Shown here: positions 27,668 through 31,065 of the stretch, piece after piece
How positions within the stretch are numbered: the first letter of the stretch is position 1
How the letters are laid out: each line of letters opens with the position of its first letter
Assembly (NCBI RefSeq): GCF_054482595.1
Contig: NZ_CM137008.1
Length of the DNA: 64,000 nt
Reading direction: 5' to 3' (one strand)
The notes under the pieces: generated by a model
What the model was told of the DNA's origin: nothing
Databases searched by the model: none
What the model saw: only the letters and a program-made list of their open reading frames with translations
Made by a program: the position numbers and the translations under genes

Positions 27668-27848
27668 TCTCTGACGTTTTCCGGGTGGCGCTGGTCGCCC
27701 GGATTACAGCTCATAGGGTGTGACGACACCATCTCTCGTATTCCGCGTTACCCATTCAAGATCATGCCGCAATTGTCTGTTTGCCTCGTTCTTCCCTCCA
27801 ACACATCGATAAGGTTATGGGTATGTCACTGATGACAAGCGTATGATT

Positions 27849-27947
27849 GCCTGATGCGCTGCGCTTATCAGCCCTACCAATAAACTTCAATATATTGAAT
27901 TTGCATGACTTTGTAGGCCGGATAAGGCGTTCACGCCGCATCCGGCA
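27849..27947. repeat. REP/BIME pair
   Basis: GCCTGATGCGCTGCGCTTATCAGCCCTAC and TGTAGGCCGGATAAGGCGTTCACGCCGCATCCGGCA after fdhE. Confidence 0.8.
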
Positions 27948-27996
27948 TGAACAACGCGCACGTTGTCAGCAATCTGATTGACATCATTTTTTCCCA

Positions 27997-28215
27997 TTAC
28001 CATTCCTCGCGCAGCTTACGCTGATATTCGACACCATCTTCCTCACACCCTTGCCAGATGCCAGGAACACTGGTTCTTGCTGTTTGCGATTGATTTATCA
28101 GGTATTGATCTACCGCTTCCCTTAATAGGTCCGCACGAGGAAGATTACGCTGCACCTCGAGATCATCAAGTTGCTTAATCACCTCATTCGATAAATCGAG
28201 TAAAATTCTGCCCAT
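27997..28215 (-). CDS. yiiF: Small ribbon-helix-helix (CopG/Arc-like) protein
   Basis: 72 aa from [39 protein letters not shown]...; RHH signature; paralogous to yiiE. Confidence 0.8.
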
Positions 28216-28332
28216 ATCTATACCTACCAGAGAGTTCATAAATATCTCGCCAATATCATTTTTGAATCTATGGAGAGAAAAGTACCCTTGTCGAATCTTT
28301 AAAGAAAGCTCATTTACGAATCATTTTTTATT

Positions 28333-28352
28333 TTTGCGAGGCGTTTTCCAGA
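28333..28352 (-). promoter_or_regulatory. Copy 1 of conserved 20-bp motif TTTGCGAGG(C/T)G(T/C)TTTCCAGA, about 120-135 bp upstream of yiiF
   Basis: tttgcgaggcgttttccaga; extended similarity to copy 2 continues through ...GTTGCAGTT. Confidence 0.5.
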
Positions 28353-28458
28353 TATGATGTAACAGTTGCAGTTATTATAAGTTCAAGTAAAACAACCTTG
28401 TATTAATACCAGAATAAGGGCATCTGGTTTTTTATATTCAAGAATAAAAAAATTTTTG

Positions 28459-28677
28459 TCATTCCTTATGATCCTTACACTGATCATAAACACCTACTGT
28501 CTCACCCCTTTGCCTGCCTCTCTTTGCTTTACGCACCGGAAATTGCTGCCGCTCCAGATATTGCTCAACCGCTTCGCGTAAAATTGCAGATCGTGAAACC
28601 TTACGCCAGCCCCGAAGCTTGTTCAGCCGTTTAATTGCCTCTTCTGATAAATGAAGAAAAACCGTATTCATCGCCAT
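28459..28677 (-). CDS. yiiE: Small ribbon-helix-helix (CopG-like) protein
   Basis: 72 aa from MAMNTVFLHLSEEAIKRLNKLRGWRKVSRSAILREAVEQYL...; GGTGG RBS; shares L.LS.E.IK.L...R..LREAV.QYL with yiiF. Confidence 0.8.
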   Translation of the reverse strand: MAMNTVFLHLSEEAIKRLNKLRGWRKVSRSAILREAVEQYLERQQFPVRKAKRGRQRGETVGVYDQCKDHKE

Positions 28678-28772
28678 TACCACCACCTTACATATATTAC
28701 TCATTAATGTATGTGCGAAAATTACGCCGGAAAATCATTTAAAAAAAGCGGATTTTTGCATGTTGTTTTGTT

Positions 28773-28792
28773 TTTGCGAGGTGTTTTCCAGA
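28773..28792 (-). promoter_or_regulatory. Copy 2 of conserved 20-bp motif, about 100-115 bp upstream of yiiE
   Basis: tttgcgaggtgttttccaga followed by ...GTGTTGCAGTTG as in copy 1. Confidence 0.5.
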
Positions 28793-29084
28793 AATAATAA
28801 GAGTGTTGCAGTTGTTTCATTTATTACTCAAAAATGGTTTAGTTATCGCCCAGGATGAGTTATGGATGCTATGAATATATTATATTCAGAGATATTTATT
28901 TGCATAATCTGAATGGTGTAGCCGAAAAACGTCAGCATCCTAACAGCACCAGGATTTAAGGTGAAATTAATCATCCATCACAGACCGGTCAGTACTGCCA
29001 CCAACCGGTCTTTACTTGTTCATCGTTATAATTTTGTTGGTAACAGTTCGGGAAACAAGGAATTCCTTCCGGAACCCCCCGGTA

Positions 29085-29177
29085 TCATCCGATAGCATTG
29101 ACGTCAATCATCAGCGCGACGATGAGTTTTTTTAATCGCATCATAGGGTGGCGACGTTCAGCACGATTACGGGTCAT
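29085..29177 (-). CDS. Candidate 30-codon small ORF downstream of the antitoxin gene
   Basis: AGGAG 7 nt upstream of ATG; product MTRNRAERRHPMMRLKKLIVALMIDVNAIG (basic N-terminus, hydrophobic C-terminus); below the size cutoff of the ORF track; no homolog recognised. Confidence 0.3.
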   Translation of the reverse strand: MTRNRAERRHPMMRLKKLIVALMIDVNAIG

Positions 29178-29262
29178 AGCAAAACTCCTGGGCAGGCGAC
29201 CACTATGCCGCTTTCACAGGAGTTCTGAATGCTAGTGCTTTCTGTATGGCATAACCATGCCT

Positions 29263-29553
29263 CTAACGGTTAAGTGCTTGCAGCACATGTTGCGGATCAT
29301 TGGCAATCGCTCGCAGCAAAGCCTTTGCAGGCCCGGTCGGTGAACGTCGCCCCTGCTCCCAGTTACGCAACGTGTCTACGCTTACAGAAATAAGATCGGC
29401 AAATTTAGATTGTGACAACCCTGAAGCGCGGCGTATTTCTTTGATTTTCATAGCATCAACTTCAAAAGTCCGCGAAGGCTGTCGCGTTCCTTCAATAATT
29501 TCATTCATCTGGGCCATGCTGTGAGTCAACCGCTCAAAAAGTGCCTTATCCAT
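29263..29553 (-). CDS. HTH-XRE family DNA-binding protein, putative HigA-like antitoxin
   Basis: 96 aa; C-terminal HTH (IKEIRRASGLSQSKFADLISVSVDTLRNWEQGRR); GAGGTGG RBS inside the upstream toxin gene; ATG directly abuts the toxin stop (TGG-TAA-ATG). Confidence 0.7.
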   Translation of the reverse strand: MDKALFERLTHSMAQMNEIIEGTRQPSRTFEVDAMKIKEIRRASGLSQSKFADLISVSVDTLRNWEQGRRSPTGPAKALLRAIANDPQHVLQALNR

Positions 29554-29865
29554 TTACCACCTCGTATTTAACAACCGGAGCATTGCTTTTTCCTGGGGAG
29601 ACAGATCATCTTTAATACCCTTACGATAAATAAGCAGTAATCTGATCTCATAATGTTTAACCTGATGAAAGTAAATAACCCTGACACCAGCACGTTTCCC
29701 CTTTCCTCCTGAAACCCATCGAACCTTTCTTAACCCACCAGTTTCAGGTATTACCTCACCATAGTCAGGATTCAAGGCCAGGAAAAACTGAAAACGACTG
29801 AATTCATCGTCGGTCAGCAGTTTTTGAACATCTTCAGTAAAAATTTCCGTTTCGATGAAGAGCAT
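29554..29865 (-). CDS. RelE/ParE-superfamily toxin, HigB-like (toxin encoded upstream of its antitoxin)
   Basis: 103 aa; pattern ...GGLRKVRW...GKGKRAGVRVIYF.....IRLLLIYRKGIKDDLSPQE... typical of HigB-type addiction-module killer proteins; gene order toxin then HTH antitoxin with zero spacing. Confidence 0.65.
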   Translation of the reverse strand: MLFIETEIFTEDVQKLLTDDEFSRFQFFLALNPDYGEVIPETGGLRKVRWVSGGKGKRAGVRVIYFHQVKHYEIRLLLIYRKGIKDDLSPQEKAMLRLLNTRW

Positions 29866-29902
29866 AATTATACGCCATTGGCTTAGAGTAACAATCCTTT
29901 TT

Positions 29903-29919
29903 GTACGTCATTGACGTAC
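29903..29919. promoter_or_regulatory. Perfect 17-bp palindrome GTACGTCA-t-TGACGTAC upstream of the toxin gene: candidate operator
   Basis: Located about 40-55 bp upstream of the toxin ATG, adjacent to TTGTTA-N16-TATAAT-like hexamers on the minus strand. Confidence 0.4.
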
Positions 29920-29986
29920 CCTTGAAACCACTAGCTTACTGATAGTGCTCCAGCAAAACCACGTCTCTGCCGGGTTTGTCTTTAGA

Positions 29987-30006
29987 TTTGCGAGGCGCTT
30001 TCCAGA
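29987..30006 (-). promoter_or_regulatory. Copy 3 of conserved 20-bp motif, about 120-140 bp upstream of the toxin-antitoxin operon
   Basis: tttgcgaggcgctttccaga; 18-19/20 identity to copies 1 and 2. Confidence 0.5.
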
Positions 30007-30093
30007 TTTTTCACGCCCGTGAATTTCCCTGTATCCATCCAGCAAAAACGGGTGTATAAGACTGTGCATTCATACAGCAAAATAAGTTCTACT

Positions 30094-31002
30094 ATGGCAC
30101 TGGAAAAAGGAATTGCAGAGTTAGTCGAAAAGTTTATCGCTGCGGGTCGCCCCTCATCGCGTCAACAAAGTATTGCGCAGCGCAGGGAGGGCTATATCGC
30201 CAGCGCTGTCCTTGCGGGTGAGACAGAAACGCGGGTAGATATTCAGACTATCGAACTTGAAGGGATGACCTTACGAATAGTGTCGCCGCTGAATGCCCCG
30301 ACATTACTCCCGACGATAATTTATTACTACGGTGGCTGTTTTGTTAGCGGCGGGTTCGCAACTCACGACAACCAGCTGCGCCAGTTAGCCTATTACGGGC
30401 AATGTCGGGTTATTGCCGTCCAGTATCGGCTGGCACCGGAACATACTTTCCCCGCCGCCCATGATGATGCGCAACGAGGTGCAGAAATAGTCTGGCAACA
30501 CGCCGAACGACTCGGCGTTGATAAACAACGTATAACTCTTGCCGGTGACAGTGCGGGCGGACATCTGGCGCTGGTAACTGCTTTGCGATTAAAGCGTGCT
30601 GGCGAGTGGCAACCGGCACAACTCATCTTAATTTATCCTATGCTTGATGCGACTGCGCATTTCGAAAGCTACATACGCAATGGTCACGATTACATCATCA
30701 CACGCGACACTTTACTGAGCGGCTTTGAGATGTATCTGCCAGGCATTGAACGCAGGCATCCTGAAGCCAGCCCTCTTTGGCGCGATGATTTCAATGGCTT
30801 GCCACCTGTACATATCATTACCGCTGAATACGACCCACTTTGCGATGAAGGTGAAGCGTTGTATCACCGCATGACAGGGCAAGGAGTGCAATGCACCTGC
30901 CAACGCTACCTTGGCGTTATCCACGGATTTTTTCAGTTAGGTGGTATCAGCGAGGCCGCGCGATCGGCACTACGGGATGTTGCCTGGAGAGCGGGAAGGT
31001 AA
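30094..31002 (+). CDS. Alpha/beta-hydrolase esterase/lipase, hormone-sensitive-lipase family
   Basis: Oxyanion-hole motif YYYGGCFVSGG, nucleophile elbow GDSAGG, downstream Asp/His (VIHGFF); start uncertain (ATG 30094 chosen; ORF opens at GTG 30019). Confidence 0.75.
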   Translation: MALEKGIAELVEKFIAAGRPSSRQQSIAQRREGYIASAVLAGETETRVDIQTIELEGMTLRIVSPLNAPTLLPTIIYYYGGCFVSGGFATHDNQLRQLAYYGQCRVIAVQYRLAPEHTFPAAHDDAQRGAEIVWQHAERLGVDKQRITLAGDSAGGHLALVTALRLKRAGEWQPAQLILIYPMLDATAHFESYIRNGHDYIITRDTLLSGFEMYLPGIERRHPEASPLWRDDFNGLPPVHIITAEYDPLCDEGEALYHRMTGQGVQCTCQRYLGVIHGFFQLGGISEAARSALRDVAWRAGR

Positions 31003-31019
31003 CTTCGGACCTGGGCCCT

Positions 31020-31048
31020 GAAAAGGTTTTCAGATTGAAAACCTTTTC
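31020..31048. terminator. Hairpin between convergent esterase and yiiD genes
   Basis: Perfect 13-bp stem GAAAAGGTTTTCA-gat-TGAAAACCTTTTC; symmetric, could terminate both converging transcripts. Confidence 0.6.
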
Positions 31049-31065
31049 AGTCAAGTAAAACGCCC

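Follow-up and report, generated by a model that had tools for sequence, protein, structure and literature searches.

We analysed a 20-nucleotide (nt) motif occurring three times in the window, i.e. a 64,000-nt stretch of contig NZ_CM137008.1 (NCBI RefSeq assembly GCF_054482595.1), where it lies upstream of yiiF, of yiiE and of a toxin-antitoxin operon. We consider it probable that each copy is a CRP-S site of the Escherichia coli type, through which the competence co-activator Sxy and cyclic AMP (cAMP)-bound CRP would switch on the linked units. The likely regulator, CRP acting with Sxy, was absent from the options of an initial annotation of this DNA, which had proposed either a shared operator or promoter element, possibly used for autoregulation by the ribbon-helix-helix (RHH) proteins, or duplication of whole promoter-plus-gene modules. 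Judged by its sequence, the motif would be a known kind of element that extends a known regulon, and through it the three toxin-antitoxin units and the esterase gene next to them would probably respond to a common signal.

The 20-mer, TTTGCGAGG(C/T)G(T/C)TTTCCAGA, was found exactly at positions 28333, 28773 and 29987, all on the plus strand, as the initial annotation had reported. Its full conserved 8+4+8 pattern is TTTGCGAG-N4-TTTCCAGA. Scanning the 64-kb window with up to three mismatches gave no match beyond these copies, and in dinucleotide-preserving shuffles (n = 100) the mean number of matches was 0.06, three matches being reached in 0 of 100. Copy 1 (TTTGCGAGGCGTTTTCCAGA, 28333-28352, with TGCGA at 28335-28339 and TTCCA at 28346-28350) lies upstream of yiiF; copy 2 (TTTGCGAGGTGTTTTCCAGA, 28773-28792, with TGCGA at 28775-28779 and TTCCA at 28786-28790) lies upstream of yiiE and differs from copy 1 solely within the spacer; copy 3 (TTTGCGAGGCGCTTTCCAGA, 29987-30006, with TGCGA at 29989-29993 and TTCCA at 30000-30004) lies between the divergent toxin-antitoxin operon and a hydrolase gene. 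Measured from the motif centre, the minus-strand start codons are 103.5 nt away for yiiF (28239), 105.5 nt for yiiE (annotated start, 28677) and 131.5 nt for the toxin (29865), in agreement with the 100-140 bp first estimated. Copy 3 is also 87 nt upstream of the divergent plus-strand hydrolase gene (30094-31002), a relationship overlooked earlier. This part of the window corresponds to the E. coli order fdoI-fdhE, yiiF, yiiE, toxin-antitoxin pair, hydrolase and fabY, and is identical in strain XH990.

Sondberg et al. 2019, following Sinha et al. 2009, write the CRP-S motif of E. coli as 5'-T4G5C6G7A8-6N-T15T16C17C18A19-3' (PMC6728893). The motif of the window has the layout TT-TGCGA-N6-TTCCA-GA (as read, TT-TGCGA-GGCGCT-TTCCA-GA). 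The strong half-site TGCGA, with C replacing the canonical T at position 6, is present in all three copies, as is the weak half-site TTCCA exactly 6 bp from it, so that ten of the ten core positions and the spacing match in an asymmetric, non-palindromic arrangement. E. coli CRP-S sites consist of two unlike half-sites that are both required, they show no orientation preference and they support class I-like activation (PMC6728893); on sequence grounds only, C6 and the poor second half-site predict a low affinity for CRP alone (PMC6728893). The E. coli CRP-S promoters tested by Cameron & Redfield, including that of the SOS gene sbmC, require CRP, cAMP and Sxy (TfoX) (PMC1635313).

A further argument comes from radC, which belongs to the competence-regulon orthologues (Cameron & Redfield 2006, PMC1635313). 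In 5,424 E. coli genomes the coaBC-radC intergenic region carries, upstream of radC, a copy matching 19 or 20 of the 20 positions (20/20 in Ec1120, 19/20 in K-12), and it was on account of this context that a Sxy-dependent CRP regulon was considered. With respect to orientation, the motif points one way at yiiF, yiiE, the toxin gene and yhcG, and the opposite way at the hydrolase gene, radC, relB, yfhM and a Gp49-family toxin gene, which describes occurrence and not activity. A CRP-S identity would explain together the asymmetry, the variable centre (the CRP spacer), the use of both orientations, the position near -70 and the presence at radC.

The genome-wide pattern search that the initial annotation had named as a check located the motif in 5,422 of 5,426 complete E. 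coli genomes, where it occupies one to six places per genome (median 3) and almost never lies on plasmids. When one genome per species was scanned, the 20-mer appeared in about 30 Enterobacteriaceae genomes and in at least six unrelated flanking contexts, while scattered matches in unrelated phyla look like chance. Besides radC, these contexts include yhcG (19/20 upstream) and yfhM, which encodes an alpha-2-macroglobulin lipoprotein and has an exact 20-mer ending 86 nt upstream in Kosakonia, Enterobacter soli, Leclercia and Silvania (locus L041, motif at 1123-1142; also L017, L033, L043, L050, L052, L056 and L059). A canonical CRP-like TGTGATC...TAACA is visible on the far side of the motif in this context, adjoining a gene for a phosphotransferase system EIIC component. 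The motif also lies upstream of a RelBE pair between cybC and nrdG, in a cassette of about 710 bp carried by 391 genomes; the K-12-type cybC-nrdG site, which is empty, lacks the motif, and the 20-mer enters as part of the RelBE cassette. In E. albertii and E. whittamii it lies upstream of a Gp49-family toxin/helix-turn-helix (HTH) pair.

In other genera, the fdhE locus carries a single motif copy immediately upstream of the hydrolase gene, and the slot to the left of it is empty or holds either vapBC or a RelE-like/NadS pair. To avoid the bias of an exact-match search, contigs bearing the hydrolase gene were picked by protein similarity alone; five further genera then showed the motif at the same position, with mostly central substitutions. 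Across 14 Enterobacteriaceae species, the majority-base frequency is 0.99 at positions 1-8, 0.75 at positions 9-12 and 0.99 at positions 13-20, against 0.47 and 0.56 in the flanks, and the orthologues of copy 3 lie 85-89 nt from the hydrolase ATG. In the window, the core promoter of the gene (30055..30077, plus strand) comprises a -10-like TATAAG (30055-30060) directly followed by CTGTGCATTCATACAG (30062-30077), whose sequence has the CTGT-N8-ACAG form of a LexA box. A CTG-N10-CAG box occupies this promoter position in 14 of 14 species and in Trabulsiella, and motif and LexA box are separated by 55 nt in 12 species and by 54 nt in two, despite the diverged sequence between them. This offset puts the site centre near a predicted -69.5 of a promoter with a weak -35 element, i.e. 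at a class I-like position; the corresponding predicted centre for yiiF is about -84.5. Conserved arms, a variable centre and a fixed promoter distance are, as read from these alignments, the signature of a bipartite protein-binding site, and this conservation points to a functional element.

Several observations weigh against a CRP-S identity or limit its reach. All promoter positions are predictions, and in the other contexts the predicted distances (about -47 to -85) are not all in helical phase. Validated sites differ from the 20-mer: that of sbmC has two TGCGA-type halves, and the best candidate upstream of K-12 higBA has two TTCCA-type halves (for the K-12-type higB, ygjN, reported as Sxy-induced, this candidate is TCTGGAATCGCGTTTCCATA, TGGAA-N6-TTCCA, at 133-152 of locus L083, about 170 nt before the ATG). 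In Trabulsiella odontotermitis (L077), the hydrolase gene lies elsewhere, downstream of a TonB-dependent receptor gene and near minC, and it keeps its LexA-box promoter without the 20-mer; this promoter can therefore do without the site. In B2-type strains copy 2 is degraded, the TTCCA arm having become TTTGCGAGACGGCATCCAAAGA in UTI89 and AVS0223. Finally, all 16 arm bases are conserved, which is more than CRP contacts alone predict.

This last point is also what would favour binding by some other transcription factor, the resemblance to CRP-S being a coincidence, since the conserved arm positions include those that CRP reads weakly. Such a coincidence is improbable in our view, as ten of ten core positions and the spacing fit a motif defined experimentally and independently, the site occurs at a competence-regulon gene, and asymmetry and orientation independence, which are specific predictions for CRP-S sites, were both observed. 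Of many other binding-site consensus sequences considered as leads only (LexA, PurR, Ada, MarA/SoxS, IclR, BaeR, MetJ, dif/Xer, hix and others), none is known to fit the 20-mer. In the 14 species, CRP positions 2-3, 9, 14 and 20-21 and the "weak" arm are conserved as strictly as the TGCGA arm, the flanks being randomised, and the uniformity of the 20-mer across unrelated loci may reflect a Sxy-specific determinant or spread with mobile cassettes. Beyond the strict conservation of the weak arm and the outer bases, we put forward as a tentative proposal, itself rather unlikely, that the uniform 20-mer is a portable "Sxy switch" on mobile toxin-antitoxin cassettes of at least five families, wiring these and an SOS-controlled esterase into the competence regulon of Enterobacteriaceae.

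The initial annotation had allowed that the motif might be the operator by which the YiiE and YiiF RHH proteins, or the HTH antitoxin, repress their own genes. The motif does stand upstream of all three antitoxin-encoding units, and a bipartite site of 20 bp suits the size of an RHH tetramer. However, the same 20-mer is found at the orthologous position without any toxin-antitoxin gene in five genera (C. freundii, Atlantibacter, Phytobacter, E. hormaechei and Leclercia), as well as beside HTH-type modules and the unrelated genes radC, yhcG and yfhM. The predicted -10 elements are about 60-115 nt downstream of it and do not overlap it, and separate palindromes occur at the promoters close to the start codons, which appear to be better operator candidates than the 20-mer. 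We thus give an antitoxin operator almost no credence. What holds of the original proposal is that the motif would be a shared cis-regulatory element, making co-regulation of the three units plausible; autoregulation by RHH proteins through the motif does not hold.

A sigma-54 promoter read on the gene strand (-24/-12 type, GG-N10-GC) is the least probable of the rival readings, and both its score and the missing ChIP occupancy refute it. In TCTGGAAAACGCCTCGCAAA the GG and GC dinucleotides do have the right spacing, but against a matrix built from 50 chromatin immunoprecipitation sequencing (ChIP-seq) sites the three copies score 3.7-5.2 bits, compared with a minimum of 7.9 and a median of 15.8 for the training sites, and they rank 195-339 in the window. 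Neither yiiE nor yiiF has a site in the K-12 sigma-54 tables from ChIP-seq and from genomic systematic evolution of ligands by exponential enrichment (gSELEX) (PMC4591121, PMC8743547). Known sites, glnAp2 and the one in fdoI, are recovered by the matrix: in the window it finds CTGGCGCGAATTCTGCA in fdoI (26259), identical in sequence to the published intragenic ChIP-seq site IS47, and TTGGCACAGATTTCGCT (51370), identical in sequence to the glnA site OS37 of the same ChIP-seq table.

Three other candidates were rejected. A coding relic or small open reading frame (ORF) was considered as early variants lay three bases apart; ORFs across the motif vary in frame and length with context, and the arms show no synonymous-type variation over 14 species. 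Rfam finds no known RNA family at the motif. A hairpin between the two arms, examined by hand, needs three G-U pairs and a mismatch, and two observed arm substitutions are uncompensated.

The three copies differ in their history. Copy 3 is, on comparative evidence, the ancestral copy at the locus and linked to the hydrolase gene; it shares only about 27 nt with copies 1 and 2, and its ancestral position upstream of the hydrolase gene likewise indicates that it is not a duplicate of them, contrary to one of the origins initially suggested. That copies 1 and 2 stem from a duplicated promoter-plus-gene module is borne out. YiiE and YiiF are 40% identical (E=3e-12), and the segment upstream of yiiF at 28277..28376, which holds copy 1 and GTTGCAGTT, is 71% identical over 100 nt to its partner at 28717-28816 upstream of yiiE. 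The GTTGCAGTT element noted earlier as common to both is indeed present at 28365-28373 and 28805-28813, each beginning 12 nt past the motif. Copy 1 belongs to a vapB module: across genera, the vapB/yiiF start codon keeps 92-98 nt from the motif, and in E. coli, Superficieibacter and Enterobacter sp. kpr-6 it is 94 nt away, counted from the motif edge. Copy 2 arose with the tandem duplication of this RHH-antitoxin module that gave yiiE.

E. coli strain CDE6306, C. koseri and Lelliottia have an intact vapC immediately 3' of their yiiF homologue. The yiiF gene of the window (27997..28239, minus strand), annotated as YiiF and giving a weak RHH match, can be regarded as encoding an orphan VapB-type RHH antitoxin because only a 29-nt relic of the vapC 3' end is left (27731..27759, minus strand; 89.7% identity to part of the vapC coding region in locus L003). 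Its paralogue yiiE (28459..28677, minus strand) is annotated as a CopG family protein. The RHH identity of both products, as initially assigned, is upheld.

Given this history, copies 1 and 2 could be CRP-S-derived passengers of the module duplication with little or no effect on yiiF and yiiE. Both lie within the duplicated 100-nt segment, yiiF is without its toxin, and copy 2 is degenerate in UTI89 and AVS0223. We regard this as unlikely, though less so than the other rival readings, since the five diverse E. coli loci that retain the yiiF module carry an identical copy 1 amid varying flanks, the distance between vapB and the motif is held at 92-98 nt across genera, and K-12-type strains without the hydrolase gene keep both copies exact.

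The interval between fdhE and fabY is a variable hot spot. The arrangement of the window is found in 2,213 of 5,426 E. coli genomes; other contents include a DUF6708 gene with a hypothetical gene, ClbS with ISEc53, two genes encoding proteins of about 300 amino acids (O157:H7) and a hypothetical gene of 92 amino acids (UTI89), NCBIfam having no family for the two O157 genes or for the UTI89 gene. K-12 and BL21 have neither the toxin-antitoxin pair nor the hydrolase gene in this interval. Contigs filed under the names Clostridiales, Robinsoniella and Bacillus coahuilensis (L010, L034 and L036) match the E. coli fdhE-yiiF locus and are probably contamination.

Such variability raises the question of whether the motif serves recombination or attachment, or marks a cassette boundary, and in this way gathers toxin-antitoxin cassettes at this hot spot. 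Conservation breaks off precisely where the motif ends on its left side, the yiiE and toxin-antitoxin modules of the window stand between direct repeats of it, and the homology of UTI89 to the window starts at the motif edge. The UTI89 junction is, however, a microhomology deletion (TTCGCG in vapC, TTTGCG in the motif), and the boundaries of other insertions fall 25, 61 and about 105 nt away from the 20-mer. Only one motif is present where a genome carries a single toxin-antitoxin module, no recombinase gene is present in the annotated loci, the motif is nearly absent from plasmids and phages, and it persists over long evolutionary times in "empty" loci. Neither a recombinase cutting within the 20-mer nor many insertion junctions inside it were found. 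The chances of such a role are accordingly very slim.

A plasmid or phage origin of the motif was also rejected. The good matches in the plasmid collection are only four multi-megabase E. coli records, evidently chromosomes, and 2.9 million viral contigs gave three matches. The four PLSDB records (NZ_OL790696.1, NZ_CP141089.1, NZ_CP134663.1 and CP061233.1) are E. coli sequences of 1.0-4.9 Mb that are filed as plasmids and look chromosomal; they may skew counts of "plasmid-borne" features.

Returning to the CRP-S reading, we compared the locus with characterised systems. Like known CRP-S sites, the copies have both half-sites, the 6-bp spacing, asymmetry, occurrence in either orientation, a predicted position upstream of core promoters and a copy at radC. 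Unlike them, 16 arm bases rather than ten core bases are uniform across unrelated loci and 14 species, the linked genes are accessory (toxin-antitoxin and esterase) rather than concerned with DNA uptake, and Sxy dependence is a prediction from the sequence.

The hydrolase gene invites comparison with sbmC, which combines a CRP-S site, a sigma-70 promoter and a LexA box under dual control by Sxy/CRP and SOS (PMC1635313). Read from an E. coli chromosome, sbmC (gyrI) likewise has CRP-S upstream of a sigma-70 promoter whose -10/+1 region lies under a LexA box. It differs in that its site is the near-palindromic TGCGA-N6-TCGCA and is centred at about -58.5 versus about -69.5 (both predicted), i.e. 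about one helical turn closer. The product of the hydrolase gene (30094..31002, plus strand) is annotated as an alpha/beta hydrolase (esterase) of the hormone-sensitive-lipase family (NCBIfam LipP1 239 bits, under the 350-bit cut-off), and homologues with 74-83% identity occur in many Enterobacteriaceae. From its promoter sequence, the gene looks like that of an undescribed SOS-regulated esterase with an upstream CRP-S site in an sbmC-like layout.

The third unit resembles known toxin-antitoxin systems under Sxy control. Its first gene (29554..29865, minus strand) is an ORF with a weak Pfam RelE match (E=0.0062), so that the toxin called HigB-like in the initial annotation is better described as RelE-like; the second gene (29263..29553, minus strand) encodes an HTH antitoxin of the NadS/MqsA type (NCBIfam NadS 60.7 bits for a cut-off of 60; match to the MqsA-family HTH). 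A RelE-like/NadS pair also adjoins the motif in Salmonella and C. amalonaticus. The segment 29867..29919 (minus strand) next to the toxin gene holds a strong sigma-70-like promoter (10 of 12 matches in the scan), with TTGTTA at 29894-29889 and a TATAAT ending at 29867 and abutting the toxin ATG. Just upstream of it is a 17-nt palindrome, GTACGTCA-T-TGACGTAC (29903-29919), with a similar one in Salmonella. Transcripts from this promoter would probably be unable to translate the toxin.

In hicAB, a CRP-S site acts at P1 and a second, antitoxin-repressed promoter, P2, lies beside the toxin start codon (Turnbull & Gerdes 2017; PMC11594946). The RelE-like/NadS unit shares the toxin-first order, a distal CRP-S site and a proximal promoter at the toxin start (here a palindrome and TATAAT), which makes this promoter a candidate antitoxin-repressed P2; the families differ (HicA/HicB versus RelE-like/HTH), and both promoters of the window are predicted only. 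The toxTA operon of Haemophilus influenzae (HI0660/HI0659) is toxin-first, has an HTH antitoxin and is CRP-S-regulated and competence-regulated (PMC6957337). It resembles the window pair in its order, in combining a ParE/RelE-superfamily toxin with an HTH-XRE antitoxin and in having a CRP-S site in the promoter, although CRP-S sites of H. influenzae are palindromic. The closer relative appears to be the Gp49-family pair that adjoins the motif in E. albertii and E. whittamii. Sxy overexpression also induces chpSB, higBA and hokD. That toxin-antitoxin operons under Sxy control are documented was counted in favour of the CRP-S reading.

On this basis, a working scheme can be drawn in which CRP-Sxy binding, the positions of the transcription starts and induction at this locus are all inferred. 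cAMP-CRP would occupy and activate the motif sites only jointly with Sxy (TfoX), contacting RNA polymerase from upstream in a class I-like manner. Sxy and cAMP-CRP would then switch on yiiF, yiiE, the RelE-like/NadS operon and the esterase gene together, copy 3 being shared by the toxin-antitoxin operon and the divergent esterase gene. For yiiF, the predicted sigma-70-like promoter (28265..28294, minus strand; TCGACA, an 18-nt spacer and TAGATT; 9 of 12 matches in the scan) sets the centre of copy 1 near -84.5. The esterase gene would additionally require SOS derepression, its core promoter being covered by the LexA box. The toxin-antitoxin unit may combine a distal CRP-S promoter with a proximal, antitoxin-repressed one, as in hicAB, and the antitoxins would autoregulate separately via palindromes near their start codons. 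Genes of the yiiE/yiiF locus are not listed in two supplements mapping transcription start sites. Literature searches for yiiE, yiiF, yicR and yhcG as a set, or for any one of these with Sxy, gave nothing relevant, the target list of Sinha et al. 2009 lying outside this comparison, and a literature search with the motif string returned eukaryotic primers only.

The locus brings together three adjacent CRP-S-linked toxin-antitoxin units and an esterase gene that apparently combines Sxy/CRP and SOS control. Thousands of sequenced strains provide natural knock-outs, in which the locus is empty or holds vapBC or the RelE-like/NadS pair, with or without the esterase gene, and the strict 8+4+8 conservation offers concrete positions for asking how Sxy recognises its sites. 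For annotation purposes, yiiF is best described as the gene of an orphan VapB antitoxin, and the motif should not be taken as an antitoxin operator.

Some minor observations were made on loci carrying the motif. In the clpA-infA interval of Enterobacter and Lelliottia (L011, 694-1451; L014, L015 and L024), a LexA-like box, CTGGATAAAATTACAG, follows 18 nt after the 20-mer, and beyond it lie a C4 antisense RNA (Rfam RF01695, 55 bits) and an ORF of about 145 amino acids; this locus looks like a prophage-derived SOS module. In L015, a HigB-like/HTH pair is inserted to the left of the motif.

In the window itself, hairpins followed by T-rich runs were seen by eye on the plus strand at 28409-28437 and 28983-29020, downstream of copies 1 and 2 and outside the output of the terminator scan; they may point to short transcripts from the plus strand or to terminators acting in both directions. 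Downstream of fdhE, a sequence resembling repetitive extragenic palindromic elements (27870-27952) gives sub-threshold Rfam matches to naRNA4 (CssrE) and ES036 (CssrF). A perfect inverted repeat of 15 bp (CTGAAAAGGTTTTCA / TGAAAACCTTTTCAG, 31018-31050), located where the hydrolase and fabY genes converge, is probably a bidirectional terminator.

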